DNA from: Nitrososphaeraceae archaeon
Lineage (GTDB): Archaea > Thermoproteota > Nitrososphaeria > Nitrososphaerales > Nitrososphaeraceae
Reading direction: 5' to 3'
DNA: 47,097 nt
NCBI GenBank assembly: GCA_035250975.1
Contig: DATFEP010000035.1
Location: 1 to 47,097, forward strand
Shown here: positions 31,054 to 47,097 of the stretch, one piece after another
Numbering within the stretch: position 1 is the stretch's first letter
Layout: the number at the start of each line of letters is the position of its first letter
Position numbers and translations under genes: made by a program
Notes under the pieces: generated by a model
The model's input: the letters and a program-made list of their open reading frames with translations, nothing else
Told to the model about the DNA's origin: nothing
Database searches by the model: none

Positions 31054-32244
31054 CTATTTTGAAAGATGCTGTTTCATGACATCTGTCATAGTTTGAGTTA
31101 CGATTGGTAGTATCCTTTGATCATTAATTTGTGGAATTATATAATTTTCTTTAAGATGTTGTTTATCAACTAATCCTGCAATTGATTGTGCCACAGTAAC
31201 AAGTAGATCTTCACTTAAAAACTTTACACGGAGATCTAGTAAAGCTCTAAGAACAGAAGGAAAGACAGTTGCATTATTAATTTGATTAGGAAAATCTGAT
31301 CTTCCAGTAGCAACGATTTTAGCCCCTGCTTTTATTGCATCATCTGGAAATATTTCTGGATCTGGATTACTCAAGGCAAATATGATCGGATTTGCGTTCA
31401 TAGATTTTATCATTTGGCTAGTTAAAACTTTAGCTTTTCCTGAAACTCCGATAAAAACGTCCGCTCCTTTTAACACATCATCTAAATTTCCACTAATTTT
31501 TCGACGATTAGTTTTGGTTGCTATTTCTTGTTTATATGGATTGCCCGTTATGTGATCACGTCCCTCATAAATAGATCCATGACTATCTACTACCACGATA
31601 TCTGTACATCCTGCTGCATGAAGGATCTTACATATACCATAACCAGCAGAGCCAGCACCTAATATTACCACATGGATATCTGTCAATTTTTTCTCCAATA
31701 AAGTGAGAGCATTAAGTAACGCAGATAAGGTAATAATTGCTGTCCCATGTTGATCATCGTGAAAAACAGGTAAAGAAATTTCATGTTTTAATCGTTCTAT
31801 AATATCCAAAACTTTGGGTGATTCGATATCTTCAATGTTAATCGCTCCAAACATTGGTTCAACAGATTTTACAAACTTTATTATCTCTTCCTTATCTTGT
31901 GTAGCGATACATAATGGGATTGCATTTATTCCTCCTAATAACTTAAAAAGAACAGATTTTCCTTCCATAACTGGAATTGCAGCCTCAGGTCCTATATTGC
32001 CTAAACCCAACACACGTGTACCGTCACATATTATTGCAACATTATTCCATTTCGAAGTATATTCATACGCTAATTCCTTATCTTTGCTTATTTCTTTCGC
32101 AACATATGCAACACCAGGAGTGTATATCAAATTGATAAGGCCATTTTCTTTTTCAAAGATATTTTCCACAGGCACACGATTATGAATCTCTATTTTACCT
32201 TTAAGCATTCTATGTAGGTTTAACGAGTCTTCTCTAATATTCAA
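31054..32244 (-). CDS. maeB: NAD(P)-dependent malic enzyme (small prokaryotic type, no PTA domain)
   Basis: YTPGVA, DGTRVLGLGNIG, VMEGK, NIEDI, FHDDQHGTA, GAGSAG, ATGRSDFPNQINN. Confidence 0.93.
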   Translation of the reverse strand: MNIREDSLNLHRMLKGKIEIHNRVPVENIFEKENGLINLIYTPGVAYVAKEISKDKELAYEYTSKWNNVAIICDGTRVLGLGNIGPEAAIPVMEGKSVLFKLLGGINAIPLCIATQDKEEIIKFVKSVEPMFGAINIEDIESPKVLDIIERLKHEISLPVFHDDQHGTAIITLSALLNALTLLEKKLTDIHVVILGAGSAGYGICKILHAAGCTDIVVVDSHGSIYEGRDHITGNPYKQEIATKTNRRKISGNLDDVLKGADVFIGVSGKAKVLTSQMIKSMNANPIIFALSNPDPEIFPDDAIKAGAKIVATGRSDFPNQINNATVFPSVLRALLDLRVKFLSEDLLVTVAQSIAGLVDKQHLKENYIIPQINDQRILPIVTQTMTDVMKQHLSK

Positions 32245-32873
32245 ACAAGAACAGGTTATCAGTATTACTATTATTATTTTGCTAAAAAATGAATGATTTT
32301 GTGATAGTAGTCTAGTCGAATGATAAGAATATTTGCAAGATTTATTGAAAATTCCTTGTTAACATTCAAAATCTTTATAAAACTTTTACTTTATCTTTCG
32401 ATGCCTCTAAAGATTGATCTTGAAACGATCCTAACTTTACTGAAATGAATTTATGATGTAGATTAATCGAATCCTTATATTATGCAGGAATTCCGGTTTA
32501 ACTTATTACAAGAATCAAAATTACTCAAAACATGAATTTCTTTTTAATAAGATCTAGATAGTCGATTTGACAAAAATAAGATATTACACTGTTTTGTTAT
32601 GCATTACTTAGATTTTTAGTTTATAGTTTAGTATACGTAACACTTTGAAGCTATGAAACTCCTTCAGAGATAAAGAAGTCGAGTTTTTAGGTACCATTTG
32701 AAGAAACTTTGAGGTTATCGAAGTCATAACAAACATTGAATATACACGTTATAATCACGTAGATATGAAACAATTATAGAGTTTTTTATAACATAATAAA
32801 ATTATATCAGAATCTCTTTTATAGATATAAATAAGAATAGATCTGGAAAGTAATAACAAAAGAGTGATCTATA

Positions 32874-33050
32874 CTATTGTTTGTGTATTTTGTCACATAC
32901 CTTGTTTGTATTATCCTTACATTTTGGACTATGTCGCCAGCTTCCATTCATAAAGTATTCAAGGTGTTTATCTTTGTTATTATCAAATACAACTCGTGTT
33001 TCACCATTTTTTGATGATTTGAATTTACTAAAAATTTCTATTTTTTTCAT
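32874..33050 (-). CDS. 58-aa microprotein with H-x3-C-x7-C-x3-H motif (absent from the ORF track)
   Basis: MKKIEIFSKFKSSKNGETRVVFDNNKDKHLEYFMNGSWRHSPKCKDNTNKVCDKIHKQ; ATG start; divergent from the 33203 gene. Confidence 0.6.
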   Translation of the reverse strand: MKKIEIFSKFKSSKNGETRVVFDNNKDKHLEYFMNGSWRHSPKCKDNTNKVCDKIHKQ

Positions 33051-33202
33051 AATATTTTATTATTTAATGATAATAAGAACGTTGACAGCCAATTTTATTC
33101 TCTTTTCCTCGTTGTATAAATAAAGATTAACAATAATTTCGAATTTTGTAGAAATTTACTCTAAAAAAGGTCATATTATATATCCCTTATTCATAAAGAA
33201 TA

Positions 33203-33523
33203 ATGGTTATTTTGATACCAAATAATTATCCCATGAGAGAATGGCATGTAAAAAATATGGAAAAAACAGTTGTTAAATATTTGACAGGTCTTCCAGAAAA
33301 TGCTTCTCCATATCAGAAACGACTTTTCAAAAAATATGGTGGTTTTAATAAAGTGTGTAATCGTATTAAATACGATATAAAACATGGTGTAAAAAATGAG
33401 GAAATTGTTTTATTTTTAGAAAAAATAAAAACTGATTCAGATTTTTCTGATTTAAGAAAATTAGAAGGTTATCCAGATAGAATAAACGAGATAGAGACAA
33501 AGTTTAATGATATACATTTTTAA
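33203..33523 (+). CDS. Conserved hypothetical protein, paralog of 11422..11751
   Basis: Shared motifs with the 11422 protein; TATA-like TTATATAT at about 33176. Confidence 0.85.
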   Translation: MVILIPNNYPMREWHVKNMEKTVVKYLTGLPENASPYQKRLFKKYGGFNKVCNRIKYDIKHGVKNEEIVLFLEKIKTDSDFSDLRKLEGYPDRINEIETKFNDIHF

Positions 33524-33576
33524 CATGGTGATCGAATTCAAAATTAAAAATTTGAATACTATAAACGGTTTTTAAA

Positions 33577-33795
33577 ATGACATGTAAGGGTATATGCTTG
33601 CGACACAAAGCATTAAAACCTAAAAATGGTCAGCGTTACATATTAGGTCAAAAACGTTGTCAGATATGCAATATTTTCATTATGTGGCCTATTGCAACAT
33701 GTCCTTGTTGTGGAGGACGGTTAAGAACTAGACCACGAAATGGAAAGTACAAATCTATGTTAAATGAAAGTATAATACACAGTAGGATATTGTAA
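33577..33795 (+). CDS. Small Cys-rich Zn-ribbon protein of a type common in Nitrososphaeria
   Basis: MTCKGIC.RHKA...RY..GQKRCQIC...W....CPCCG.RLRT.PR. Confidence 0.85.
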   Translation: MTCKGICLRHKALKPKNGQRYILGQKRCQICNIFIMWPIATCPCCGGRLRTRPRNGKYKSMLNESIIHSRIL

Positions 33796-34185
33796 GCAGT
33801 AGTCTCTATAAATAATACCTTATCTACAATTTAAATTAACCAGGAAAGAATAAATCTGTTTTATCCGAAGACCTTTCAAAATCAATGATTAATCTTTATA
33901 TAATATTCTTCTAAATATAGTGTAATACAGTATGATGTTATCCTTAAAAATTTATCGAATTGGACAAATATGCGACATATGCAGAAAGTGTTATTTTCCT
34001 CTGTCTCTATATAAAATGCGATCATTGGTAAATATATTTACACCAAAAAACGGCAGATAAATATTATATAATAAAAAATAAAATATTATTAATTTTACAG
34101 TCAAATACATTATCTTCACAATTAAATTAATCATCAATCTGCAAGTTAAGGGCAATTACATCTTTTATAGAAAAACAAAAAAAGT

Positions 34186-34578
34186 GTGATATATATAATA
34201 ATTTGTACGGCGATAGAAACTATAACAGCCAAACTATGGCAAGAAAAAGTAACAGACTCTGTTCTCCCGGTGGTAGTTAACTTTAGTGCAGTTCGTTGTG
34301 GTTTTTGTCAAGCTTTAGAGCCATTGTATAATCGATTATCTGGACAATATAATGATAAGTTGGTATTTCTGAAGCTTATGGTAGACGATCAAAATAATCA
34401 GGAATTATTAGATAGGATATCGATTGAAGGTACACCTACGCTAAAGTTTTATTGTAAAAATAGAGAGATTGGCGAACATATTGGCTATGCAATAGAACCA
34501 GTATTAAAACAAAAGATAGAAACCTTTTTATCAGAAATGGAATTCTGCATTCAGAATAGTACAAAATTGGCCAAGTAA
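34186..34578 (+). CDS. Thioredoxin-fold protein with CGFC active site
   Basis: PVVVNFSAVRCGFCQALEP, cis-Pro loop GTPTL; start codon uncertain. Confidence 0.88.
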   Translation: MIYIIICTAIETITAKLWQEKVTDSVLPVVVNFSAVRCGFCQALEPLYNRLSGQYNDKLVFLKLMVDDQNNQELLDRISIEGTPTLKFYCKNREIGEHIGYAIEPVLKQKIETFLSEMEFCIQNSTKLAK

Positions 34579-35223
34579 TTATATTGTTGGTAAATTTAAA
34601 AGATGCTGTTAAGTTAAGACTAACTCATCCTATTTTCTATGTTTTGTATTTGACCTTGAATTAAAAAGACGACGAATGAATAACTAAACCAACTGTACTG
34701 TACTTATTATAGGTCACAGTTGAACCTATTATTTTAGTTTATATTGTTTGGACACCAAGGTAAATATGGATCTGTTACTTTATCATTCATCTGGAAAAAC
34801 ATTTTCTAGTTTTCTTTCTAAATGACAATTGCGTTATCTGCTACAACATTTTGAAAATAGTTTTAATTTCATTATCAAACTCAATTCAAAATTATTTATA
34901 TATTTAGAATGGGCAAGATCAAATAAATATTGATTACAATATGAATGTACATAAAAAATTACCCCTGCTAGTGTCATAATATCGCTAGAGTATAAAATAG
35001 ATTTCATATAATAATTGAAATAAACAATATTGACAATCAAATTTCTTGGGAAATAATGTATTTTATTCCATGCATTATGTATTTCTATTGGAAAATAATA
35101 CTTCCCAGAATTATTTGCATATGTGAATTTCAATAGTGATGTCATTTGCTTGTAACAATGATAAGTTTACAATTTTCTTAGTTAATATTATAAATAATTT
35201 TTACATGCTAAATCTAATTTAAA

Positions 35224-35688
35224 TTGGATGTAAAAGTGAGGTTTGCTACTTATTCAGATATAGATACAATATTGAAACTCCTCTGTGAACTTGGTAGGCC
35301 TTCTCCAAAAAACAATATACAAGAACAAAAATTTTCAGAATTTATTAGGTCATTTTTATCTATGGATACAAACAAAATATTGTTGGCAATAATACCTGAT
35401 CGAGATTTGAGTATTGACAGAATAATAGGATTGTTATCTTACATTCTGATACAAAGATTAAACCTAGAAAAACTAGAATTATGGATTCCAGAACTTGTAG
35501 TGAGTCATGAATATAGAGATAAAGGAATTGGTACAATACTATTAAACGAATGTGAATCTGTTGCTAAAAATAATAATTGTTATAGAATAAGACTCGAATC
35601 AGGAAACGATAGAATAGAAGCACATAACTTTTATAAGAAATTAGGATTTAAACAAAGCGCGTTCATGTTTGAAAAACGACTGGTTTAA
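35224..35688 (+). CDS. GNAT-family N-acetyltransferase
   Basis: LVV..EYRDKGIG, LES...R.EAH.FY.KLGF. Confidence 0.92.
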   Translation: MDVKVRFATYSDIDTILKLLCELGRPSPKNNIQEQKFSEFIRSFLSMDTNKILLAIIPDRDLSIDRIIGLLSYILIQRLNLEKLELWIPELVVSHEYRDKGIGTILLNECESVAKNNNCYRIRLESGNDRIEAHNFYKKLGFKQSAFMFEKRLV

Positions 35689-35820
35689 TGACTCTTCCAT
35701 TCTTCTACATGAATTGGTTTTTAACTTGCTCTTATTAACTCAATTTTTAAACTTCAAAAACATAAAGAATGTATAGTAATCAATCTATATCAAAAATCCT
35801 GATAATTAGCATTTTTTCAA

Positions 35821-35880
35821 TATCATATGTGACTAAAACTAAGTTCTTTGGATTCAGTCATGTAACGGCCATTTTTGCCT
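35821..35880. repeat. Composite repeat site 1 (left arm, degenerate core, right arm type Z)
   Basis: TATCATATGTGACTAAAA (17/18 to 44944), TGGATTCAGTC, GTAACGGCCATTTTTGCCT (18/19 to 41903). Confidence 0.7.
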
Positions 35881-36137
35881 ATAGTGTAACTGTCTTATCG
35901 CAAAGGTGGGTTTCGATTTGACTAATGTCATATATGGAAGTTTAACAAATTTCTGCTTATGGAACTATTATCTGAACGTTATCAATATTTTATTATGAAT
36001 ATGCCCTTAATAAATAGACAAAAGTAACATAATAATTTATCCCATATTTCATACGCTTCACGACTTATTCATTGTAATTTAAATTTTCTGCTCAATATAT
36101 TGATGTAGAAAAAGTAACTATAATTCTGTTTTATTTA

Positions 36138-37367
36138 TTATCTTTCTTTAATAATCTGAAACTGGTCATATACACGCTCCTCGTCATTATTCTCTATAAA
36201 CGAACCTTTTAATGTAATTCCGTTATTCTCTACAGAGATATTTAGTATTCCAAATTTGCCGTCTAATCCAAAAGCAGAAAAGGGTTTAATTTCTGACATC
36301 TTCATATCATGTGCTCCTCCTGTGCCGGCAGTTATAAAAATTGTTCCTTTTGGGTTTATGTAATATGAGGGATCATAATCCTCAACTATAGGTTCATAGC
36401 CATCATCATAATTAAAGCTAATTGGATATAATCTTTCATAGGCATGAAAGTGCCCTTGCAGAGCTAGATCTACCCTATATTTATCAAACAATGGATGATA
36501 TGTATCCCTAAAATCATCATCGTCTTCAGGACCGCCTCCAGAACTGTATGCTTGTCTATGATAAAATGCAACAATCCAGTCAATTGATCGATCTTTAGAA
36601 GACTCTTCAAGATCCTGAACTACAAATTCATATTGCTGTGATCCTTCTTCATATGGAATTTCTGTAGATAATGCTATGAAGTGAACAGTTTTATAATTAA
36701 AAGAATAGTACTGTTTCTCCAATCCAAAATATTGTATATAATCTCTCAAAGTTTTGGATGAATCATGTTCATGATTTCCTATTGCAATTTCAGTTTTGTC
36801 TGCTATTGGTTCAATTATATCCAGCCAACATTCTGCGTTACCATTATACGAAAGATCTCCCAGTGCCAGCACCACTTCTGGATCCTGTTCCAAAATGTTT
36901 TCTACAGTATCCTTAGTTTCAGATTTACAGTCCCAATCTCCTACAGCTACAAAATTGAAATCTGATTTATGGTCAGATTCTTCTTCTTTCGTTGATTTTG
37001 ATGTAAATGTAGATTCATCGTTATCTTCTTCTTTATTATCATGGGAAAGTCCTGTTTCTTCATATTCTTTTATTGACTGGATATCTTCTTCTACATTGTT
37101 GTTAGTATTTGAATCTAATTGTTTTTCAGAATCAGCATCTTCTATATAATCAGACGGATCAAATATATACTCAAACGATTTCTCTTCGTCATCTTCAACA
37201 TCCATCCCAACTGCAAAGGCATTTCTATTCTGAGCAAAAATTGAGTTGATTAAATTGTCTTCATGGTTTATATTTCTTTGAAGTAGACTATTACTAAATA
37301 ATATTAATGAGAAGAAAGCTATCACTGTAAGTAAATTAAGGTTAACATAATCAATACGAATCTTCAA
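36138..37367 (-). CDS. Secreted calcineurin-like metallophosphoesterase (purple acid phosphatase-like) with acidic linker
   Basis: GDW, GDLSY, GNHE, H.QAY, GHFHAYER, GTGG; N-terminal hydrophobic segment. Confidence 0.92.
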   Translation of the reverse strand: MKIRIDYVNLNLLTVIAFFSLILFSNSLLQRNINHEDNLINSIFAQNRNAFAVGMDVEDDEEKSFEYIFDPSDYIEDADSEKQLDSNTNNNVEEDIQSIKEYEETGLSHDNKEEDNDESTFTSKSTKEEESDHKSDFNFVAVGDWDCKSETKDTVENILEQDPEVVLALGDLSYNGNAECWLDIIEPIADKTEIAIGNHEHDSSKTLRDYIQYFGLEKQYYSFNYKTVHFIALSTEIPYEEGSQQYEFVVQDLEESSKDRSIDWIVAFYHRQAYSSGGGPEDDDDFRDTYHPLFDKYRVDLALQGHFHAYERLYPISFNYDDGYEPIVEDYDPSYYINPKGTIFITAGTGGAHDMKMSEIKPFSAFGLDGKFGILNISVENNGITLKGSFIENNDEERVYDQFQIIKER

Positions 37368-37678
37368 ATGACTAGAAATTTATCAAATTTGTTACTTTTA
37401 ATATTTTGTCTATTATCGAACAGTAGAAAGTATTGCACTCACTTAATTATTAATGTTACCTATAAAAAGATATAAACGAATTTGATAGAAAAGTCTTATA
37501 ATATTCTATTATATCAGAATAATAATAAATTATACATTTTAAAATTTACTTATTCAATTTCATATCTTAATTTTGAAATGTTTTTTATTCCAAACATGTT
37601 TCCAATTTCAAGGTTAATAACACTTGAAGATTCTGAAACTTCGATAAACAAAATTACCTAGCATTAGACAAATATGCG

Positions 37679-37905
37679 TTATCTTTTAATTAAATAGCAC
37701 CCACTTAATATTACTCCCATTGCAATAATTTGATAAATAATAATATTTTCATTTAAATACACTGTGGCAAATCCCAAAAATTGAAGATGTAGAAAATAAT
37801 AATATTGTTTTTATCGTTCCGATCCTTTTAAGGATACGAAGAAAAAAGAATAAGAATCTGCAATTCCCAATGATCCTGCTAATACTAAATATGGTACATG
37901 AATCT
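37679..37905 (-). pseudogene. 3' remnant of an EamA/DMT-family transporter gene with frameshifts
   Basis: Stitched frames: YLVLAGSLGIA...FFVSLK / IGTIKTILLFSTSSIFG / FATVYLNENIIIYQIIAMGVILSGCYLIKR*, the usual EamA C-terminal pattern; no 5' part. Confidence 0.65.
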
Positions 37906-37995
37906 TTATAAAAATGTGAGGAAGTAAAGGGAAAGTGAAGGAAAAGGCAAAGGTCAATTTATCGAAAATCGCCGTATAAAAATATACATATTTGT

Positions 37996-38087
37996 AATGG
38001 GCCGGGTCATTTGAGTTACAAATTTGTTACTAATCCATATTACAGAATGTAAATTGATATAATTAAATTAACAGCAGCATTTATAAT
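37996..38087. repeat. Composite repeat site 2 (core, right arm type W)
   Basis: 37996-38035 is 39/40 identical to 44974-45013; looser similarity continues for about 50 bp. Confidence 0.9.
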
Positions 38088-38425
38088 AATAATTAATTCT
38101 CTTGTACATAAGGATTGGAATCTTCGCCAATCAAATGTGGGTTCTACTTTCGGTTACTAAAATATTGGATTATAATATAAATACATTCGAGTAATCCAAG
38201 TTTATAATATAGTCATTATTGTTTATAGAATCTTATTTATACGTTATTTAATGATATTACTTAAACCAATAATACTATTATTACAAACTCCATTTCTTGT
38301 GAAATGAGATTAATTATCCAAAATCAACAAAACTATTGAAACAAATAAAAGATATAAAAATTAAGAATAAATTTATTACAAATAAAAGACAATCTTATAA
38401 GGTAAAAAGTCGTTTAAATATAATA

Positions 38426-38746
38426 ATGTCTAAATTTAAACTTCCATTAAAGAGGACGGATTTGAAAGAAGGCGAATTAGTAAAAGCTGAAGTGGGAGAT
38501 AAATCTATTGTGTTTGGAATGGTTAAAGGGACAATATATGCAATGGATTCAGTTTGTTCGCACCAAGGAGGACCACTCGAGGAGGGATGGTTAGACGATT
38601 ATGATCTTACATGTCCTTGGCATCAAGGAATTTTTGATATACGCACCGCTAAAGGTTCTCCTAAAACAAATTGGGTTACTGATCTTAACTCCTATTCTGT
38701 CATTGTTGATGAGAAAAGTGAAGAAATTTTTGTAGAAATAGATTAG
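38426..38746 (+). CDS. Rieske [2Fe-2S] ferredoxin (dioxygenase/NirD-type small subunit)
   Basis: CSHQGGPL and CPWH..FD; ATG at 38426. Confidence 0.93.
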   Translation: MSKFKLPLKRTDLKEGELVKAEVGDKSIVFGMVKGTIYAMDSVCSHQGGPLEEGWLDDYDLTCPWHQGIFDIRTAKGSPKTNWVTDLNSYSVIVDEKSEEIFVEID

Positions 38747-38783
38747 ATATTAAATAGTGATAATATGTTATCTCTACATCTTG

Positions 38784-38820
38784 TATGTTACCAAAACATT
38801 TCATCCGAATGGGCCGGGTC
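38784..38820. repeat. Composite repeat site 3 (left arm, exact core)
   Basis: TATGTTACCAAAACATTT followed by AATGGGCCGGGTC at 38808-38820. Confidence 0.85.
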
Positions 38821-39117
38821 TGACTCATTGTTTACAATATGAACCTAAATAAAAAATATCTATAATATATATATAGCTGGAGTAATAAAATTATAAATTT
38901 ATAATTTTATTTCTTCAAATATTGAAAAATTATATTATAACAATAGATAGATAGAAACTCAAGACTCTTACTCTTACTCTACAGTAGGCTATTAAATAGC
39001 ACCTAAATACACATAACGATAGACACCGATAAATTTTAATCCACTTAATAAAAAATGATATTTTTAGTGCCAAGACCATGCTATAGCATGCTCTCACTAT
39101 ATATTATATATGTTACC

Positions 39118-41622
39118 TTATTTAGATACTATCTTATTCACTATAGATACGTAATAATAACCAGGATTAACGCTATAAATCTGACCATTATGTTCTCCTG
39201 CTATTCTGGTAATATGAGTTCCAAGTATGATATTATTTGCAATAACTTCATTAGTAATACCATCTATTACACTAACGGTATTTTTTATCACTACGTATAA
39301 TAAATTATTCATAGTATCATAATATAAATGACGTGCAGGTTCATCGACCTCAATTGTTTTCACAACAGAGTTGTCTGTACAGTTGATGACGGAAATAGTG
39401 TTGTTATCACGGTTCCCAAGATAGAGGAGGTTTTTTGTTGGGTTGAAAGATAACGAGGCTACATATTCGCTTACTTTGATAGTGTCTGCAATAGAGTTGT
39501 CAGTAGTATTAATCACAGAAACAGTTTTATTGTTTAAGTTAGCAACGTAGAGGAGATTATCATTTGGGTTAAGAGCTAATTTTCTTGGGTTTTCGCCTAC
39601 TTTGATAGTGTCTGCAATAGAGTTGTCTGTAGAGTTGATGACAGTAATAGTTTTTTCATCATTATTAGCAACATAAAGATAATTGTTATTAGGGTTAAGA
39701 GCTAATGCTACTGGGGCTTTGCCCACTATGATTGTGTCTATAATAGAATTATCTGTAGAGTTGATAACGAAGGTAATGTTATCTTCTGTACTAATAACAT
39801 AAAGCATTTTGTTCTTCTGGTTAAATAATGCATCATAAGGATTATTCAGTTTAATTTTTTCTAACGATGAACCATCAATTGAATTTCTGATAGAGATCGA
39901 TTCTCCTACCTTGTGTGAAGTTAGTGTATAAACATGGTTATTTAGTGGATTGGATAAAATATCTATTACTCTTGTATAGGTAACCCATGTTTTTATAAGT
40001 GAATTATTAGTAGTATTTATTACAGATATAGTGTTGTTACCAGAGTTGGTAACGTAGAGAAGGTTGTTATTAGGGTTAAGAGCTAATTCTTTTGGGTTTT
40101 CGCCCACTGCGATTGTATCAATAACAGAGTTGTTTGTGGAGTTTATGACAGATATAGTGTTGTTACCAGAGTTGGTAACGTATAGAAGATTATAATTTTT
40201 ATTAAAACTCAGATCTGAGACCTTGTCTACGTTGATTATAGCTATAATAGAATTGTCAGTAGAGTTGATGACAGAAATACCAGCACCAGTCATATTAATC
40301 GAACTAACTATATAGAGGAGGTTGTTATTAGGGTCAAGAGCTAATTCTTTTGGGTTTTCGCCCACTGCGATTGTATCAATAACAGAGTTGTTTGTGGAGT
40401 TTATGACAGATATAGTGTTGTTACCAGAGTTGGTAACGTAGAGGAGGCCATTATTATTGTTTATTTCAATATCAGTCTTAGATTTATTATCTAATAATAG
40501 GGAATTTATAAGAGCGCCTGTAGAACTACTCTCGTCAATCTTATATTCATTAGCTGATTCCCTAGGCCAATCAACTGTATACATCAAACCTGTAATATTG
40601 TTAAATGTAATATTCATGATTTTACTATCAAGTTTGATATAATGTATATTATTATTAATAGGATTAATTATTTCAATAAGTTCTGGATCAGCTGAAGGAA
40701 CATAAAACTTCTCGTTAATTATTGCTATACCAGGAACCCTATCCATTAAGATGTCATATGTTTTACTCGAATTTATTAAATCAATCAAAGAAAACATATG
40801 GTCATCATCACTGGTGACATATAGTACATTTTTTGTCGGATCAATCTCTAATTCCGCAGGTTCAATGTGTATTTTCAATGTGTCTATAATGGTATTATCT
40901 GTGCAGTTGATGATAAATACAATATTACTATCTCTATGAGCAACATAAAGGAGATTATTGTTAGGGTTAATAGCTAATGCTACTGGATCATTACCTACTT
41001 TGATTGTATCTATAACTGAGTTTTTTGTGGCGTTGATGACAGAAACAGTGTTAGTGTTGTTTCCAGAGTTAGCAACATAGAGGAGGTTATTGAGCGGATT
41101 AAGAGATGGATCCACAGGAGACTGACCTACCTGTATTGTCTCAACGAGAGAATTGTTTGTGGAATTAATGACAGAAACAGTATTACCGTCATTATTAACA
41201 ACATAAAGGAGATTATTATTCGGGTTAATAACTAATGCTACTGGAAAATTACCTATTTTGATTGTGTCTATAACTGAGTTGTTTGTGGAGTTGATGACAG
41301 AAACATCATCATCATCAGAATTAACAACGTAGAGTAGGTTATTATTGGGATTATGGACTAATGCTAGTGGAAAATTACCTACTTTGATTGTATCAATAAC
41401 AGAGTTGTTTGTGGAGTTGATCACAGCAACAATACCTGTTATTTCCTCTGTTTCTGTATAACTCGCATATATATATCCGTTATTAGCATTTATTATAGAA
41501 TAAATCTCTTTTGAATTAGGAATTTTAATGTAATTTTCTAATACTGCAGATTCTGAGTCAGATAGAAAATTACTAATAAATAAAATAAAAAAAACAAAAT
41601 AAAAAAAATAGATGATATTCAC
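39118..41622 (-). CDS. YVTN/YncE-type beta-propeller repeat surface protein
   Basis: Signal peptide; many LYV.N...NTVSVIN.T.N.VI.TI.VG..P repeats; dense N-x-S/T sequons. Confidence 0.93.
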   Translation of the reverse strand: MNIIYFFYFVFFILFISNFLSDSESAVLENYIKIPNSKEIYSIINANNGYIYASYTETEEITGIVAVINSTNNSVIDTIKVGNFPLALVHNPNNNLLYVVNSDDDDVSVINSTNNSVIDTIKIGNFPVALVINPNNNLLYVVNNDGNTVSVINSTNNSLVETIQVGQSPVDPSLNPLNNLLYVANSGNNTNTVSVINATKNSVIDTIKVGNDPVALAINPNNNLLYVAHRDSNIVFIINCTDNTIIDTLKIHIEPAELEIDPTKNVLYVTSDDDHMFSLIDLINSSKTYDILMDRVPGIAIINEKFYVPSADPELIEIINPINNNIHYIKLDSKIMNITFNNITGLMYTVDWPRESANEYKIDESSSTGALINSLLLDNKSKTDIEINNNNGLLYVTNSGNNTISVINSTNNSVIDTIAVGENPKELALDPNNNLLYIVSSINMTGAGISVINSTDNSIIAIINVDKVSDLSFNKNYNLLYVTNSGNNTISVINSTNNSVIDTIAVGENPKELALNPNNNLLYVTNSGNNTISVINTTNNSLIKTWVTYTRVIDILSNPLNNHVYTLTSHKVGESISIRNSIDGSSLEKIKLNNPYDALFNQKNKMLYVISTEDNITFVINSTDNSIIDTIIVGKAPVALALNPNNNYLYVANNDEKTITVINSTDNSIADTIKVGENPRKLALNPNDNLLYVANLNNKTVSVINTTDNSIADTIKVSEYVASLSFNPTKNLLYLGNRDNNTISVINCTDNSVVKTIEVDEPARHLYYDTMNNLLYVVIKNTVSVIDGITNEVIANNIILGTHITRIAGEHNGQIYSVNPGYYYVSIVNKIVSK
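40061..40440. repeat. 122-bp intragenic direct repeat (40061-40182 and 40319-40440) with one mismatch
   Basis: Direct comparison; spacing 258 bp; a third partial copy lies at 40022-40056. Confidence 0.9.
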
Positions 41623-41869
41623 TAATTCAGATCAAATTGACTTAGTAATAAATAAGATCTTTTTTGATATCCTCATGCCAATTCACGTCTATAATGCATT
41701 CTGAATATTTTTCAATATATTTATGCTTATAGTCATAATTTTGAATCAAGGCAGATCAATATCAAAATATTCCTCTAATGTTAGAAATTCATATTATGCC
41801 TCAAGCTATCGATATTATTCTATTTCTTATTACATTATCATGATAATAATTATTTATTACTCATTCTTA

Positions 41870-41921
41870 TTACCAGAGTATTTATAAAATGGCTCGGGTC
41901 GGGTAACGGCCATTTTAGCCT
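41870..41921. repeat. Composite repeat site 4 (left arm, variant core, right arm type Z)
   Basis: TTACCAGAGTATTT, AATGGCTCGGGTC (41888-41900), GTAACGGCCATTTTAGCCT; perfect inverted repeat TAAAATGGC/GCCATTTTA. Confidence 0.8.
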
Positions 41922-42144
41922 GTAATCCGAAAATTTGTATGAATCATCGAATCAATTAATTTTATTATAATTCCAATATTTAGTTTATTGTGTTCAACTG
42001 TCAATTAACAGATAAGTTTAACTGTACTGGGGTGATTTTGTTGTTAATGTTAAGATTTGAATCAAAGAAAACAAATTTTTACATATTTCTTAACAAGTAT
42101 AATGTCAATGAATCTGTTATAGTAGGAGGTTTCCAATTCTAGTT

Positions 42145-43053
42145 ATGCAACATATCTTTAAGGGAATGTGGGGATCACACGGTGCCGGCGACGGTGAATT
42201 TGACAGACCACATGACATTGCTGTTGATTCTGATGGAAATGTGTATGTAGCTGATTCGAATAATCATCGAATTCAAAAATTTACCAGTACAGGAACGTTT
42301 CTTGACAAGTGGGGAGAAAAAGGTAATGCTGAAGGTGAATTCTTATTCCCCATTCATATTGCTGTTGATTCCAACAATGATATTTACGTCACAGAGGAAC
42401 CTTCAGGTCTTACTCATGATCCTGAACCGATTCGCACACGTATACAAAAGTTTACACGTACAGGTGATTTCATTACACAGTGGGGAGAATTTGGTTTTGG
42501 TGACGGTCAATTTTTTCGACCTCATGGCATTGCTGTAGAGTCTGATGACGATATATTAATCGTAGATTCTCAAAATTTCAGAATTCAAAAATTTAACAAC
42601 GATAGACAATTCATTACAAAATGGGGAAGATATCAACCTGGTGATGATAGGCATTGGCATCTTGGATCTCCTATTGACGTTGCTGTTGACTCAAATGATC
42701 ACAAATATGTTACTGATGGTCTGCATCACCTTGTAAAAAAGTTTGGTCGTGTTCGTAATTTCATTAGACAATGGGGAACGCACGGTACTGGTGATGCTCA
42801 GTTCGATCATCCGGAGGGAATAGCAACATTTTCTGGAAATTCTCTACTGGTTGTAGATTCTTTGAATCATCGCATACAAGAGTTTTCCAGAAATGGTGTT
42901 TTCATTACTAAATGGGGTTCACGCGGAACTCAACCAAGTCAATTTATCACTCCAACTGGTGTAGCTATAAACCAAATCGATGATATGCATTACATATCTG
43001 ACACTGGCAACCATCGAATCCAGAGATTTCATCCTGACCAGGGGGTTCCCTAG
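42145..43053 (+). CDS. NHL-repeat six-bladed beta-propeller protein
   Basis: Repeats F..P.GIAVD.....YV.D..NHRIQKF...G.F...WG; AGGAGG upstream; no signal peptide. Confidence 0.93.
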   Translation: MQHIFKGMWGSHGAGDGEFDRPHDIAVDSDGNVYVADSNNHRIQKFTSTGTFLDKWGEKGNAEGEFLFPIHIAVDSNNDIYVTEEPSGLTHDPEPIRTRIQKFTRTGDFITQWGEFGFGDGQFFRPHGIAVESDDDILIVDSQNFRIQKFNNDRQFITKWGRYQPGDDRHWHLGSPIDVAVDSNDHKYVTDGLHHLVKKFGRVRNFIRQWGTHGTGDAQFDHPEGIATFSGNSLLVVDSLNHRIQEFSRNGVFITKWGSRGTQPSQFITPTGVAINQIDDMHYISDTGNHRIQRFHPDQGVP

Positions 43054-43294
43054 ATCTAACTTTTTGCAATCTACGAGATAGTAAAATTAAAAGAGAACGT
43101 AAAAAATGAAAAAAATAGCCACATATTTCCTAACTTTATTTTGAATTTATTAACTAACTAACTAATTATACCGCAACTCGTTTTGCTGAATGATATACCT
43201 AATTTTAGTTACATAAATAAATAATAAAAAAACATATCTTCTATTCACAATTTATCAAATATCTGAACAATACTCCTAAATATATTCAGTTCAA

Positions 43295-44645
43295 TTGATT
43301 ATGATGAGTTTAACAAATATCATAGAAGAAAGATGGGTCTACGGTAGTGCGCTACATGTGGAAAATCCTGCAGTCGGAAGATTTTCAGTTTTAGGCACGA
43401 TGACAACTATCGAGCTAGGAACGAATCAACATAACTGGTTAATATGTTCAGTACCTGCTCCAAATGTTCTCGATGGATGGAAAGTAAGAGCAGTAATGAT
43501 CCGATATAACATAAGGAGCCCTGATTCGCGTGGTTTAGGAATCATTGACAAAATTGGGATACGAAATGGGAATCTAGACGTCGGTAGATTCGAAAGTCTG
43601 ACGATAGGACCTAATTCCATAGAACCTCAAGAAAATTGGGAAGTTCGAAAATTAGTATTATCTCGTCCAGGCGATTTCAAATTTGGTTTAGGAGTTACTA
43701 TCCATGTACTATTTCCCCAAATTAGCCCTATACCACCACCAACAAAATTCTCTTTTACCAGTATAGGACTAGAATTCATTAAATTTATTCCTCGTCCCCC
43801 CGATCCAACGGGTATTGATATATATAGAATTGCCAATCCAGTATTCGGTAATAAACTATTAGTAGCAGATGAAAGAAATCACCGTATACTAAATCTTAAT
43901 AATCTTATTCCAGGACCAGTGGGGGCGTGGGGTTCTGAGGGGTCCGGCATCGGGCAGTTTAGGTTTCCAAAAGGTGTCGCAATTGATCCCTAATACTAGG
44001 AACATCTTTGTGGCTGATACTAATAATAATCGTATTCAAAAGTTTACACTCACTGGCGCTCCAATTACACAATGGGGATCTCTTGGGACAGGTGATGGTC
44101 AATTCAATCTTCCTTGGGCCATTGCTTTAGACTCTTCATCAGGTGATGTGTATGTGAGTGATAGTGACAATAATCGTATTCAAAAATTTACAAATGACGG
44201 TAATTTTATTACAAAATTGGACAACGTTACTTCACTAGGAATTGCTGTTGGTCCAGATGGGAATTTGTATGTATCATCACAGCTTAATAAAATCCAAAAA
44301 TTTGCATCCGATGGACAATTTATTAAAGAATGGGGTTCATCTGGTACTGATGATGGTGAATTCGATACTCCTGTTGGTATCACCGTTGATTCCAATAATG
44401 AAGTTTATGTTGTAGATAATGAAAATCATCGTGTACAAAAGTTCACAAGTAACGGTGATTTTATTACGAAATGGGGTACTTTCGGTTCAGGAAATGGGCA
44501 GTTCAGGGGACCATATGGTATTGCGTTTGATAGAGATACAAAGTGCGTGTACGTATCCGATCATGGAATCGGCAACATTCAAATATTCACACAAGACGGT
44601 CAGTTTCTTAAGTTTGTGAGTCTATCACCAATCGTTCAACCATAA
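43295..44645 (+). CDS. Unknown N-terminal domain (DUF6623-like, tentative) fused to an NHL propeller, split by a +1 frameshift at 43988-43993 (recoded gene, pseudogene or sequencing error)
   Basis: ORF 43295..43993 stops mid-blade (FPKGVAIDP*); the +1 frame continues PNTRNIFVADTNNNRIQKF. Confidence 0.85.
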
Positions 44646-44943
44646 CATTCAATACATCAATTGGTTTTATAATGATATTTGTTTTGAGAATAAGTTTAAA
44701 ATATTTACCAGTTGATATCTCAATAATTTTTTTAAAATCAACAATATATTTATTACAAAATTAAAAATTTAATTATTTAAATTAAATTACTTTCAAGAAA
44801 CTTGAAAGGTCAATTTGGTTGAAGGTAAAATTTAGCAATGGCAATTAGACACAAATAATATTAAATATAGTCACAAAACTTCTGTTAAAAGTAACTGAAT
44901 TTTAAATTATTTTTTAGGCGTCGAAAAATTACGTTCACCTAAT

Positions 44944-45063
44944 TATCATATGTGACCAAAATATTTAAATATCAATGGGCCGGGTCGTTTGAGTTACAAA
45001 TTTGTTACTAATCTAAACTACAGAACATTTATTGACATGATTAATTAACAACATGATTATAAT
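44944..45063. repeat. Composite repeat site 5 (left arm, exact core, right arm type W)
   Basis: TATCATATGTGACCAAAATATTT, AATGGGCCGGGTC (44974-44986), TTTGAGTTACAAATTTGTTACTAATC. Confidence 0.9.
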
Positions 45064-45143
45064 TAAATGTGCCGCAACCACTGGTTTATAAAACAAATTT
45101 AAATCATATATTTTATACATGGATACGAATCTTTAACACTACC

Positions 45144-45461
45144 ATGTATGAATTCAAGTATATAAAACATAATAAGGCTAAGTTTAAGGCTGGTAAAAGA
45201 GATGAAGGTACAAAGATACTTACAGATTTTTTCGATGAATACCGTCATGAAATTAAAGGATTCAGAGGATTTTTAATTATGGATAGTCTAAACGATTCCC
45301 AAGAAACTATAGCGCTAACTTTTTGGGAGACAAAAGAAGATATGGATGCATATCATAGGCCTGATAATAAATGGTTTCAAATAATAACGGAAAGAATTAA
45401 ACCATTATTCGAACGAATACCAGAGAGAAGTAACTATACCCTTTTTTATTTCAAAACATAA
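45144..45461 (+). CDS. Antibiotic biosynthesis monooxygenase (ABM)-like protein
   Basis: K.GKRDE, KGFRG, IALTFWETKEDM.AY; ATG at 45144. Confidence 0.85.
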   Translation: MYEFKYIKHNKAKFKAGKRDEGTKILTDFFDEYRHEIKGFRGFLIMDSLNDSQETIALTFWETKEDMDAYHRPDNKWFQIITERIKPLFERIPERSNYTLFYFKT

Positions 45462-46015
45462 TTTTCCAGTTAAGCAGTCATAACGTTTGATAAATGTATC
45501 TTTTGGGTAAAAAACAACGAATCTTTCTATAAATTTGTTGTTAGGTATCTGTATGTAGGTCAGCCGCAGAAAATTACTGGCCCGTCGGGAGTAGAATCCT
45601 CTATGTAGTAGGGTTCTATTGACTTGTACTTAGCTTTATAATTAATTCATTATATTTTCTGGAGAATTATAATCAACTTAGAATATTTAAAAATTACTTT
45701 TCAACAATTATAAAAGTTTGAATTCTCTAAAATTTAGAATAAGAAAAAACAAAAAAAATAACCATTAAAACATGAAGTTAAAATTTCATATATTTCTTCT
45801 TTCTCAGTCTTAACTAGTAGTTAATCCTAGGTGCCATATTTTTTCTTTTATTGTCTTTATATATTGCACAGTAACAGATTTATCTTGGAGAATTCAGACG
45901 GTTCAAATCATTTATAACATTTTTAAATTTTCAATATTTATTATAGTGCCCAAAATAGTCTAAATTATAAAATTTAAATTTGGTTTACCATAATATAAAA
46001 TCCATAACGATTATT

Positions 46016-46279
46016 ATGACTATCTTTGATGTATTTGCATTCATCAGTGGAATTATTCTAATAGGAGTAGGTAGCCTTTTAATTTATTCTTTCTTAGCTA
46101 AACCTTATAAGCAAAATGGTGTAACTGTCAGAGGAATTTTTTTTATTGGTCCAATTCCAATAGTACTTAATAATGACAATCAAGTCATTAATTTATTATC
46201 TATAATATTTTCGATATCTTTAATAGCAGTATTTTTTGTTTTATTCTTTTTTATCCTTTTAAATTATATTAATTTATAG
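46016..46279 (+). CDS. DUF131 (TIGR00304-like) archaeal membrane protein
   Basis: GIFFIGPIPIV signature between two TM helices. Confidence 0.85.
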   Translation: MTIFDVFAFISGIILIGVGSLLIYSFLAKPYKQNGVTVRGIFFIGPIPIVLNNDNQVINLLSIIFSISLIAVFFVLFFFILLNYINL

Positions 46280-46281
46280 AA

Positions 46282-46767
46282 ATGAAAAAATGCAAAAACT
46301 GTCAGGTTAATGATGCTAGATACATTTGTCTTGGATGTAGTAGAGAATTTTGTACTTATTGTATGAAAGAAGATGAGTTTCTTTGCTCTCAGTGTAGATA
46401 TAATAAACAACATGAAAATCAAAAACAACAACGACAACAAGAAAACAAATCCAAATTAAAAAAAAATAATCATAGGATAATCAATATTATTTATATAATA
46501 ATTGCATCATCAATATTGTTTCTAGGTATAATTTTAGTATTAACATCATATCCATCTCTTATTAATATGATTAGTAGTAACGGTACTATATCAGAAGAAG
46601 AGCAATACAATAATAATAGAGACGGATTTATCTACATTTTTCCATTTCCATTTGCTATACCACTTGAGTTTAATAGTTTATTTATTATACCTCTGATATT
46701 GACTTTTATCATCATTACACCAATAATTTTACTTTTAATTTTTCTGAAATTAATAAAAATATCCTGA
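46282..46767 (+). CDS. Membrane protein with N-terminal B-box-like Zn finger and DUF131-like C-terminus
   Basis: CxxC-x8-CxxC-x4-CxxC-x7-CxxC, then TM helix, GFIYIFPFPFAI, TM helix. Confidence 0.8.
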   Translation: MKKCKNCQVNDARYICLGCSREFCTYCMKEDEFLCSQCRYNKQHENQKQQRQQENKSKLKKNNHRIINIIYIIIASSILFLGIILVLTSYPSLINMISSNGTISEEEQYNNNRDGFIYIFPFPFAIPLEFNSLFIIPLILTFIIITPIILLLIFLKLIKIS

Positions 46768-47097
46768 AAATGAATATAAAGTCTCAAATAGAATAAAAAA
46801 ATAAACAAGGACCTTGTATATCAAGATTTGAATCCTACATGCATTATAATAAGGTTTTTGCTAATTTGTATTTAGCTTTTATTATAAGAAACTTAAAAAA
46901 AGTAAAATAATCATACAATAATAGACTAATCTTGATTTGTTTCGATGGAATTATCTAAAAATTCAATACAATTCTTTTTCTTTTCTATCAAATATGAAAT
47001 ACTGTTTTATACAACATGTGAAATAAAGCATTTTATTGAAACAGAGAAGAATAGGAATAATTTTTATGGTGTTAGGCGCTGTCATGTTGGTAATTCC

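Follow-up and report, generated by a model that had tools for sequence, protein, structure and literature searches.

Repeated sites in an accessory region

The right end of the window, by which we mean contig DATFEP010000035.1 of a soil archaeon of the Nitrososphaeraceae from position 1 to 47,097 (genome total 2.49 Mb), contains accessory genes separated by copies of a 13-mer, and raises the question of what these sites are and how the genes came to lie between them. A sequence-only reading had described five co-oriented sites forming an integrase-less, integron-like array. The 13-mer AATGGGCCGGGTC was confirmed as exact at 37996, 38808 and 44974, and the variant AATGGCTCGGGTC, with 2 mismatches to the core, at 41888; all four copies lie on the + strand, in the single orientation claimed for them. 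At ≤2 mismatches, 0.08 copies are expected by chance in the window, and four copies were reached in 0 of 100 shuffles. Genome-wide, the exact 13-mer has 4 copies, comprising the 3 in the window and 1 at position 663 of contig C2.

The proposed site at 35849 (TGGATTCAGTC) stands only in part, since its core is weak (6/11 positions) and it owes its status as a site solely to its two arms, each of which has matches at other sites. The statement that there were none in the first 35 kb overlooked a degenerate sixth site at 34908-34920 (AATGGGCAAGATC, 10/13). The core of this site 0, taken alone, is not above chance (3 mismatches; 6 matches compared with 2.05 expected, a number reached by 2 of 100 shuffles), and its right arm matches that of site 3 at 27/31 positions in the same register. 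The equivalent of site 0 in strain contig L083 reads TGGGCAAGGTC, and the equivalent of site 3 in L082 carries the same core variant. The features are collected in Table 1.

Table 1 Sites, arms and gene units at the right end of the window
Feature	Position	Strand	Content
Site 0	34908..34959	+	Degenerate core AATGGGCAAGATC 34908-34920; epsilon right arm 34929-34959
Unit 0	34921..35848	+	GNAT acetyltransferase gene 35224-35688 (PF00583, E 1.6e-15); beta left arm at end
Beta left arm motif, site 1	35827-35838
Site 1	35849..35885	+	Decayed core TGGATTCAGTC 35849-35859; gamma right arm from 35862
Unit 1	35862..37995	-	Metallophosphoesterase 36138-37367, minus (PF00149, E 4e-13)
Unit 1 remnant	37679-37810	-	EamA C-terminal, E 0.0087
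Delta left arm	37971-37995		At site 2, end of unit 1
Site 2	37996..38066	+	Exact core 37996-38008; alpha right arm
Unit 2	38009..38807	+	Rieske [2Fe-2S] ferredoxin gene 38336-38746 (PF00355, E 8e-15)
Beta left arm motif, site 3	38785-38796
Site 3	38808..38857	+	Exact core 38808-38820; epsilon right arm
Unit 3	38821..41887	-	834-aa beta-propeller (YVTN/WD40/NHL-like) gene 39118-41622, minus (Pfam)
Site 4	41888..41928	+	Core variant AATGGCTCGGGTC 41888-41900; gamma right arm
Unit 4	41901..44973	+	NHL gene 1 42145-43053; NHL gene 2 in two frames, 43295-43993 and 43974-44645 (Pfam NHL)
Beta left arm motif, site 5	44950-44961
Site 5	44974..45044	+	Exact core 44974-44986; alpha right arm
Unit 5	44987..47097	+	Cut by contig end; ABM monooxygenase-like gene 45069-45461 (Pfam)
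Unit 5, tRNA-Lys(TTT)-type att fragment and arm	45577-45644		Core 14/15 to tRNA-Lys 3' end
Unit 5, 1.25-kb insert			DUF131 gene 45980-46279; zinc-ribbon membrane ORF 46282-46767
Unit 5, degenerate Lys-type site	46822-46890		Direct repeat of the first
Unit 5, multi-copy end	46852-47097		Multi-copy in relatives

Identity of the core with the tRNA-Val(GAC) terminus

The copy at C2:663 overlaps the 3' end of a tRNA-Val(GAC) gene located at c[665,739] of C2, a contig other than the window. The 11-nt TGGGCCGGGTC is the reverse complement of this 3' end (C2:665-675), and the 13-mer consists of the last 11 nt of the tRNA gene plus 2 nt. The likeness continues at site 2, where window 37971-38008 and C2:638-675 are 97.4% identical across 38 nt (E 1.7e-12), site 2 additionally carrying 25 nt of the downstream flank of tRNA-Val as its delta arm; at site 4, the tRNA match is extended to 13/15 nt. 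The core was therefore rejected as a new kind of site. As a control, the tRNA genes of the genome were compared: the 3'-terminal 12-mers of 8 of 22 have extra exact copies elsewhere (11 copies, a count that omits two tRNA-Pro genes with a common end), while the same holds for the 5'-terminal 12-mer of 1 of 22.

A tyrosine integrase adjoins the tRNA gene

The window contains no recombinase, as had been noted: PF00589 is found at 4 places in the genome, 0 of them on the window contig, and a tblastn search of the window with 6 integrases of the C2 family gave a best E of 0.67. An integrase remnant was sought in every unit and none was detectable. The description "integrase-less" is thus true of the window and not of the system as a whole, because a tyrosine integrase adjoins tRNA-Val(GAC) on C2, next to the fourth copy of the core, the setting in which the earlier reading had suggested looking for one. 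ORF C2:615->1 comprises the first 205 aa (N-terminal half) of the protein and is truncated by the contig end; the C-terminal half was sought in the assembly and is absent. The tRNA-Val 3' end is 50 nt away from the ORF start.

Among 1864 longer candidates, 1421 relatives were found at E≤1e-3, many of them annotated as integrase or PF00589; full-length relatives have ~400 aa, and the best (398 aa) is 98% identical. In a 30-member alignment R158, H287, R290, H312 and Y320 are invariant and K184 is nearly so. An AlphaFold model (pLDDT 79.8) matches XerA, Cre, IntI, Tn1549 Int, XerH and lambda Int, with 52 matches at E≤0.001, in which IntI (2a3v) ranks 13th as one of many tyrosine recombinases. 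The family scores at or below the Pfam cut-off of 27.1 bits (P0002 none, P0003 24.9 bits, P0061 27.1 bits), and a sequence-profile search of the PDB gave no match. At 5 of 10 related loci the integrase directly follows a tRNA gene (Arg, Ile or Leu), and a 48%-identical copy on contig C88 of the same genome adjoins tRNA-Lys.

Probable linkage of the array to tRNA-Val(GAC)

In the near-complete relative G016 (10 contigs), a single contig holds both the conserved block of the window (27835-33834, 92%) and tRNA-Val(GAC), with ~41.6 kb between them and their orientation shared. Three further composite sites (with delta, alpha and gamma arms) and an integrase stub are located between the two or adjoin the tRNA. 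The window cores are oriented as expected for fragments downstream of tRNA-Val. Synteny with G016 stops at ~33.84 kb, 1 kb ahead of the first recognisable site. No end overlap was found between the window contig and C2; by synteny with G016, C2 would most likely lie beyond the right end of the window, across an assembly gap.

Arms and gene units

Each site has the architecture of a P' arm, core and P arm junction, with three types of right arm (alpha, gamma, epsilon) and two of left arm (beta, delta). The left arm reported before sites 1, 3 and 5 was borne out: ATGT[GT]AC[CT]AAAA lies 22-26 nt left of each, these being 3 of its 10 occurrences on both strands of the 2.49-Mb genome. The right arms had been under-described. 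GTAACGGCCATTTTNGCCT is common to those of sites 1 and 4, and the gamma arm is found genome-wide only at these two sites and at C44:28819. The site 1 arm matches both the site 4 arm and the G016 arm at R43675 at 22/30, and the site 4 arm matches the latter at 25/30. Across 42 nt, the alpha arm of site 5 and the L083/L084 junction show 100% identity. The 61-nt junction of site 2 is 91.8% identical to G016 R41022-41081, and its delta-core-alpha order resembles that of an attP, or of a junction where two elements of one family meet. Gamma-like arms also follow a tRNA-Lys-type core at C71:507 and a tRNA-Val core in another MAG, L020, and the arms are thus modular.

Pfam searches agreed with the metallophosphoesterase, Rieske, beta-propeller (YVTN/WD40/NHL matches) and two NHL genes that had been assigned to the units; of the pair proposed for unit 1, the EamA tail is weak and falls under the Pfam cut-off. 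The units measure 0.8-3.1 kb and hold one or two genes each, on both strands, each with 240-420 nt of its own upstream DNA. Units 0-4 have a site on either side and no integrase match. Unit 2, at only 799 nt, is a single gene between two arms; in three relatives, similarity to its Rieske gene is limited to the coding sequence and does not take in the arms. The beta-propeller gene of unit 3 contains internal 126-nt repeats. The homologue of NHL gene 2 on G003:C121 is a single 441-aa ORF with 89% DNA identity, indicating that the gene in the window is frameshifted or mis-assembled. In unit 5, ~1250 nt are skipped in contigs from 4 of 4 runs examined.

Breakpoints between strains fall at the core

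Comparison between strains revealed gene presence/absence breakpoints at the core, as the sequence-only reading had anticipated. Four metagenome contigs with the core and alpha arm were retrieved; three show a window unit beside a different neighbour at the core, and in the fourth, the junction differs from those of the window on both flanks. L083 and L084 match the window at 96% along unit 1 and as far as the delta-core, after which another alpha-type unit follows and units 2-4 are missing. In L082, units 2-3 (90.7%) are preceded by a different neighbour that ends in a beta arm. Alignment of these three with the window leaves twelve invariant columns, ATGGGCCGGGTC, separating shuffled flanks, and altogether the invariant 12-nt core is found between five different pairings of left and right flank. 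A search for a clean empty site gave none. The thioredoxin gene that lies left of site 0 in the window has a different setting, without a tRNA close by, in each of the 9 relatives examined (9 of 9).

Origin of the array

Taken together, the sites are very probably att junctions of a tyrosine integrase family recombining at tRNA-gene 3' ends, and the array a stack of integrase-less islets at tRNA-Val(GAC). With the 13-mer as a tRNA-Val tail copied at each integrase-driven insertion, this region of the window would be a pile-up of captured accessory genes. Of the earlier proposal, the tandem accretion of small units without integrase is thereby supported, and their mobilisation in trans is possible. 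In the proposed mechanism, each site would consist of the end of the left unit (P' arm), the core and the start of the right unit (P arm). Core-bearing circular DNAs would have entered one by one, with either the tRNA or a core copy already present as the target, and each event would have added one unit and one core copy. Units without integrase may have lost it, or may be sub-circles excised between two cores, and the outcome would be small non-autonomous islets in tandem, corresponding to what are called CIMEs (cis-mobilisable elements) in bacteria and "gene capture" in archaea. Against this, the delta arm of unit 1 (25 nt) stops exactly where the likeness to the C2 element stops, and no integrase remnant was detectable, so that the decay of integrase-bearing elements is inferred rather than seen; within the units, decay is visible in the frameshifted NHL gene 2 and the weak EamA tail. 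The 799-nt unit 2 is awkward for random deletion.

A refinement compatible with accretion is that the units are active cassettes, excised and inserted in trans by the tRNA-proximal integrase with the arm types as recognition modules, so that the tRNA would serve as an integron-like capture platform. We consider this unlikely. The small one- or two-gene units lacking any integrase trace, the recurrence of few arm types with different cargo, the modularity of the arms, the reassortment of units at the core, and the three cores still exact even though NHL gene 2 is frameshifted are all in its favour. However, contigs from 4 of 22 listed runs contained no circular form or core-to-core joint, although contigs drop rare variants and could easily miss them, and scanning of viral contigs for the core and alpha arm gave 0. 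The Rieske gene of the three relatives shares no arms with unit 2, the genes point both ways and have upstream regions of their own, and 5 of 6 sites fold no better than shuffles.

Two other readings are very improbable, and to the same degree. A promoter, terminator or protein-binding element of the accessory genes would suit intergenic, co-oriented sites and the 10-bp palindrome ACAAATTTGT in the alpha arm, but the core repeats the 3' terminus of tRNA-Val (with downstream flank at site 2), the flanks reassort at the core, distances to genes are irregular (the Rieske stop lies 62 nt before a site and the NHL2 stop 329 nt before another, while two divergent starts are 266 and 245 nt away), and Rfam at E≤1 over 33000-47097 gave no match. 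Segmental duplication of one old tRNA fragment and its neighbourhood, without site-specific recombination, could explain the 71 nt that sites 2 and 5 have in common at 86%, including their alpha arms, but not the mutually unrelated sequences of the units, the five flank combinations around an invariant core, or the same arrangement at tRNA-Val of G016.

Comparison with known systems

Accretion at tRNA-Val(GAC) can be set beside several known systems. She et al. (2001, 2004) reportedly described "gene capture" at archaeal tRNA genes, in which trapped elements decay and leave tRNA fragments and foreign genes; the model is said to rest on integrases of the SSV type, the gene of which becomes split on integration. 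In the window, too, fragments of a tRNA remain along with foreign genes, whereas the C2 integrase gene lies beside the att site and not across it, its start codon 23 nt from the delta arm.

The analogy to integrons drawn by the sequence-only reading is not supported, the pattern being that of classical tRNA-att accretion or gene capture. The array and integrons both have small gene units bounded by recombination sites and, with C2 probably beyond the right end of the window, a tyrosine recombinase at one end. Unlike integrons, the window has tRNA-derived sites without attC-type folding, and the remark that the sites do not resemble attC was correct: in ssDNA folds of the 6 sites, five gave z of 0.02 to 0.90, and site 4 alone showed some hairpin potential (z -1.88). 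Also unlike integrons, the genes occupy both strands with their own upstream DNA, there is no attI/Pc arrangement, and relatives of the C2 integrase adjoin tRNA genes.

In Thaumarchaeota, the available portion of a survey that went by integrases and hallmark genes reports mostly "cryptic integrated elements", with att sites as short as 8 bp and a median of 17 bp, tRNA genes as the target in 57% of integrations, and arrays arising by re-use of one att site (PMC6563490). The tyrosine-integrase elements in tRNA genes of ammonia-oxidising archaea and their short att sites are alike, whereas that portion describes no rows of single-gene, integrase-less units. Integrase loss after integration and tandem integration have both been described in archaea (PMC8371274).

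CIMEs, according to PMC5704250, are integrase-less att-flanked elements in tandem with ICEs/IMEs at tRNA 3' ends, for example those related to ICESt1/ICESt3 of Streptococcus thermophilus; for CIME accretion it cites Pavlovic 2004 and Bellanger 2011. The window array differs in belonging to an archaeon, with no conjugation genes seen, and in its very small units (0.8-3.1 kb, one or two genes) and short core (13 nt). By sequence, the two appear alike: the units retain attL/attR-type sites but no integrase, they are stacked in a single orientation downstream of the 3' end of a tRNA, neighbouring units meet at hybrid junctions, and the element nearest the tRNA bears an integrase. The array would represent a known route of genome growth, here with unusually small units.

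Repeated core sites in the window

A motif scan of the window recovered every exact 13-mer copy that the sequence-only reading had listed, together with the variant at 41888, all on the plus strand (see table). At up to 2 mismatches 0.08 copies are expected by chance and 4 were reached in 0 of 100 shuffles; the repeat pattern is real and well above chance. The site claimed at 35849 stood only in part: its core agrees at only 6 of 11 positions, but both flanks match those of other sites, and for this reason alone it is credible. A further candidate, site 0, appears when 3 mismatches are allowed. Its core by itself is not above chance at that threshold (6 matches against 2.05 expected; 6 reached in 2 of 100 shuffles), while the 31 nt to the right of it agree with the site-3 right flank at 27 of 31 positions in identical register.

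Genome-wide (2.49 Mb, both strands), the left-arm motif ATGT[GT]AC[CT]AAAA occurs 10 times, and three of these occurrences precede sites 1, 3 and 5 by 22-26 nt. The cores lie at no regular distance from gene ends, which speaks against a regulatory motif. Base composition does not distinguish the island from its surroundings, and an Rfam scan of 33000-47097 at E<=1 gave no match. Among the genes of the units, NHL gene 2 (43295-44645) is split into two overlapping frames of 232 and 223 codons; its homologue in a relative (G003:C121) is a single ORF of 441 aa, 89% identical, and the split gene is either a decaying frameshifted pseudogene or an assembly error. Flanks of the Rieske gene in three relatives (G003, G018 and G013) had only coding sequence in common with the window, all three contigs ending at or in the gene.

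Sites, arms and units of the array, with related features elsewhere (sites run left arm, core, right arm on the plus strand; C2 and C88 are other contigs of the same genome, G016 is a relative)
Feature	Position	Core	Left arm	Right arm	Unit to the right, or remarks
Site 0 (candidate)	34908	AATGGGCAAGATC		epsilon	GNAT acetyltransferase
Site 1	35849	TGGATTCAGTC	beta	gamma	metallophosphoesterase, weak EamA tail (E 0.0087)
Site 2	37996	AATGGGCCGGGTC	delta	alpha	Rieske ferredoxin; 799 nt in total
Site 3	38808	AATGGGCCGGGTC	beta	epsilon	834-aa beta-propeller protein
Site 4	41888	AATGGCTCGGGTC	beta (weak)	gamma	two NHL genes
Site 5	44974	AATGGGCCGGGTC	beta	alpha	ABM-like protein, DUF131 protein, zinc-ribbon membrane ORF
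tRNA-Lys-type composite	45577-45644	CTGGCCCGTCGGGAG (45577-45591)		own conserved arm	in unit 5
Degenerate copy of it	46822-46890
tRNA-Val(GAC) gene	C2 c[665,739]		delta
Integrase ORF	C2:615->1				205 codons
tRNA-Lys(TTT) gene	C88 c[3041,3128]
G016 site	in 41.6-kb variable stretch		delta	alpha	91.8% to site 2 over 61 nt; metallophosphoesterase (probable paralogue) on left
G016 site	in 41.6-kb variable stretch			gamma
G016 site	in 41.6-kb variable stretch			alpha

The core derives from tRNA-Val(GAC)

The assembly comprises 91 contigs at 30.6% G+C, of which the window is one entire contig, C19. Outside the window the exact 13-mer has one more copy in the genome, at C2:663, where ARAGORN places a tRNA-Val(GAC) gene. 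The 13-mer is the reverse complement of the last 11 nt of this gene plus two flanking bases. C2:638-675 aligns with window 37971-38008 at 97.4% over 38 nt (E 1.7e-12), site 2 including the downstream flank of the tRNA as well. ARAGORN found no tRNA gene in the window, so this origin was invisible from the window sequence. The site type is not a new one but that of an att site in tRNA-Val.

Within the genus, 4 of 25 genomes hold the exact 11-mer: the present genome with 4 copies, G003 and G016 with 2 each, and G014 with 1. Two G003 loci (L060 and L064) hold tRNA-Val(GAC) 3' fragments of 58 and 42 nt with no complete gene there; these presumably stem from another integrase type, and indicate that elements with far longer att cores also use tRNA-Val(GAC) in the genus. 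Displaced tRNA tails are a genome-wide feature and frequent here: for 8 of the 22 tRNA genes the 3'-terminal 12-mer is repeated exactly elsewhere (11 extra copies, a total leaving out two tRNA-Pro genes with a common end), against 1 of 22 for the 5'-terminal 12-mers used as a control.

A tyrosine integrase adjoins the intact tRNA gene

Directly downstream of tRNA-Val, an ORF runs off the start of C2, and the C-terminal half of the gene is absent from the assembly. The truncated ORF alone had no Pfam match, and its PDB matches, to beta-propeller designs over 40 residues, were taken as spurious. Of 1864 longer candidate proteins, 1421 are relatives at E<=1e-3; these are about 400 aa each, and many are named integrase by their source or carry PF00589; the closest, P0002 (398 aa), is 98% identical. 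A direct Pfam scan against the cut-off of 27.1 bits gave no match for P0002, 24.9 bits for P0003 and 27.1 bits for P0061, two further relatives. In an alignment of 30 members R158, H287, R290, H312 and Y320 are invariant and K184 is nearly so; together they form what we take to be the tyrosine-recombinase catalytic set. A PDB search with a sequence profile of the family gave 0 matches. A fold search with an AlphaFold model (mean pLDDT 79.8) gave 52 matches at E<=0.001, the listed top matches all being tyrosine recombinases, with XerA (E 1e-7), Cre, IntI, Tn1549 Int, XerH and lambda Int among the proteins matched. A tyrosine recombinase gene thus lies beside another core copy, where the sequence-only reading had proposed to look for one. 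Its observation that the window holds none agrees with the genome scan: PF00589 occurs at 4 places, none on C19, and tblastn with 6 family members gave a best E of 0.67.

The family is habitually found behind tRNA genes. A co-oriented tRNA immediately precedes the integrase in 5 of 10 related loci of other genomes (Arg-GCG twice, Ile-GAT twice, Leu-TAA once). Family members were detected in 18 of 25 genomes of the genus at E<=1e-30, with up to 22 in one genome, many of them truncated or with stops. Two other loci of the present genome carry integrases of other families at other tRNAs: a 520-aa ORF on C57 (964-2526; N-terminus MGSNPTPRA) has its start within the 3' end of tRNA-Ser(GCT), and on C9 an integrase lies ~450 nt downstream of tRNA-Val(TAC).

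Probable linkage of the array to the tRNA-Val locus

No overlap was found between the contig ends of C19 and C2. In relatives the final ~245 nt of the window exist in multiple copies, and this accounts for the break in the assembly. In the relative G016 (10 contigs), the window block 27835-33834 (92%), a 41.6-kb variable stretch and tRNA-Val(GAC) lie on one contig in the same orientation, and from this arrangement we infer that the right end of the window leads, across the gap, to the C2 integrase and tRNA-Val. The integrase adjoining the G016 tRNA-Val is a 128-aa stub. Three further sites built like those of the window lie in the variable stretch; the metallophosphoesterase next to the site-2-like junction is 67% identical to that of the window. 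The 92% identity of this junction was considered as a sign of constraint and dropped, the neighbouring conserved block also being 92% identical and the metallophosphoesterase probably a paralogue.

Synteny with G016 stops at window 33834-33900, where G016 has ~1.3 kb missing from the window. This extra stretch seems to be coding and window 33838-33900 matches its middle; the variable region appears to be bounded here by a deletion scar and not by an att site. A search for an empty site beside the thioredoxin gene found the gene in another context, with no tRNA, in 9 of 9 relatives examined. Just past tRNA-Val, C2 1316-1866 is a ~550-bp repeat with dozens of copies at 70-78% in G012, G016, G003 and G017, probably a MITE- or IS-like family.

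Arms are modular

Each right arm recurs at more than one core. The alpha arms of sites 2 and 5 are 86% identical over 71 nt, and gamma is also present at two sites of a locus in another MAG (L020). With the tRNA to the right, the left arm of a site is P', the tRNA-proximal end of the unit on its left, and the right arm is P, the distal end of the unit on its right. With its delta-core-alpha order, site 2 resembles the attP of an alpha/delta element; two elements of one family in tandem should meet in a junction of just this appearance. At C71:507 a tRNA-Lys-type core is followed by a gamma-like arm, indicating that arms are modular and independent of any one tRNA.

On C44, a gamma-like arm (TTAACGCTCATTTTTGCCTGTAATCC, 28819-28868) follows 24 nt downstream of tRNA-Arg(GCG); at sites 1 and 4 the arm is on the other side of the tRNA end. 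Epsilon-armed sites with a variant core were seen at metagenome contig positions L082 3557 and L083 737 (TGGGCAAGGTC) and at window 34908 (TGGGCAAGATC), while window site 3 has an epsilon arm with the canonical core; judging from these cores, epsilon-type units may derive from a host with a different tRNA-Val end.

Flanks reassort at the core between strains

Scanning metagenome contigs for the core plus the alpha arm yielded 4, L082-L085. In three of them (L082-L084) a unit of the window meets a different neighbour at the core, and in the fourth, L085, the junction differs from those of the window in both flanks; presence/absence breakpoints fall where the sequence-only reading had suggested looking for them. 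From 34177 (or 35992) as far as delta-core, unit 1 included, L083 and L084 are 96% identical to the window. An alpha arm follows that equals the one at site 5 over 42 nt (100%) and leads into different DNA; units 2-4 are missing. L082 has, at 90.7%, the stretch from alpha and unit 2 across a site with core TGGGCAAGGTC to epsilon and the first part of unit 3, with a different, beta-ended left neighbour. The same beta flank, core and alpha arm recur in L085 (166-1937), ~440 nt from an opposite-strand tRNA-Val(GAC) that is followed by a full-length integrase; such an inverted core pair could stem from integrase-mediated inversion, or the chromosome could simply be arranged differently. In the junction alignment ATGGGCCGGGTC is the sole fully conserved block, surrounded by five different flank combinations. 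As read from these alignments, such shuffling around an invariant core bears the signature of site-specific exchange.

Viral contigs scanned for the core plus alpha arm gave 0 matches. No core-to-core joints were seen in contigs of runs X2, X3, X4 and X7 (4 of 22 listed sequencing runs). Contigs of these runs span sites 2-3 and site 4 in the window arrangement, and several diverge just past the alpha arm at ~45010-45015; interpretation was confined to covered parts, and overall the contig-level data contributed little. Three weak long skips (36970->46786, 38904->43140 and 38973->46866; sides of 21-30 nt) are not at cores and were set aside. A loose end past 38008 that reads into tRNA-Val is no evidence of a deletion variant; it most likely reflects a C2-type junction, as the C2 junction shares 38 nt with site 2.

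A second att specificity nested in unit 5

Within unit 5, the core at 45577-45591 matches the 3' end of tRNA-Lys(TTT) at 14 of 15 positions. Contigs of all 4 runs examined skip the 1.25 kb between the two Lys-type copies, which holds the DUF131 gene and the zinc-ribbon ORF. The two copies are relics of a second att specificity nested within the tRNA-Val array. Further Lys-type cores with arms occur on C20 (2 copies), C26, C50, C68 and C71. The end of C68 overlaps the start of C88 by 141 nt at 100%; C68 carries a 96% copy of the ABM-gene segment (window 45049-45593), ~2.8 kb from tRNA-Lys and an integrase pseudogene, which on C88 is 48% identical to P0002 and has one TAA stop. The C68-C88 locus thus parallels the inferred C19-C2 locus.

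Proposed mechanism

Under serial accretion, the mechanism we strongly favour, circular DNAs would integrate one after another at the tRNA gene or at resident core copies. Units without integrases would have lost them, or would have formed as sub-circles between two cores, and a resident integrase might excise single units or blocks. This is a simple, testable account of a striking repeat pattern, and it marks the region from ~34.9 kb through the contig end as far as tRNA-Val as a gene-gain hot spot of a Nitrososphaeraceae genome. Archaeal mobile-element surveys relying on integrase or other hallmark genes would miss such integrase-less islets, while scans for tRNA 3'-end fragments would find them.

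That single units are actively cut and re-inserted by the integrase as cassettes appears unlikely to us; what speaks for it, and against simple decay, is that no unit contains an integrase trace and unit 2 is minimal. Also unlikely is its extension to these soil ammonia-oxidising archaea, where an abundant integrase family (up to 22 copies or fragments per genome) would run an open cassette exchange. Single-gene units with a tRNA-derived core and a few modular arms would then be excised and re-inserted in trans at any core, also between tRNA loci, as a functional integron analogue on tRNA att sites. Movement between tRNA loci is conceivable given the tRNA-Lys-type site nested inside the tRNA-Val array, and units mobile in trans, if real, would amount to a cassette-exchange system in archaea.

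Comparison with known systems

The sequence-only reading had likened the array to integrons. Two features tested set it apart from them. Integron attC sites fold into hairpins, whereas 5 of the 6 sites here fold as single strands no better than shuffles (z 0.02 to 0.90; site 4 alone, z -1.88); and the units are not the co-oriented, mostly promoterless cassettes of integrons. What endures of that reading is the accretion of small integrase-less units in the window. According to PMC6563490, the att sites of integrated elements of thaumarchaea are short (down to 8 bp, median 17 bp), 57% of integrations are in tRNA genes, and arrays arising by site re-use are known for tyrosine-recombinase elements; PMC8371274 reviews integrase loss following integration, and tandem integration, in archaea. 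In bacteria, cis-mobilisable elements (CIMEs) are described in PMC5704250 as having lost integration and transfer genes while keeping attL and attR, with other elements integrating alongside. By analogy, this CIME/accretion concept fits the window array best. The array is of an accretion type already known, at a tRNA att site; its very small units, its modular arms and an integrase family that is abundant in this genus make it notable.
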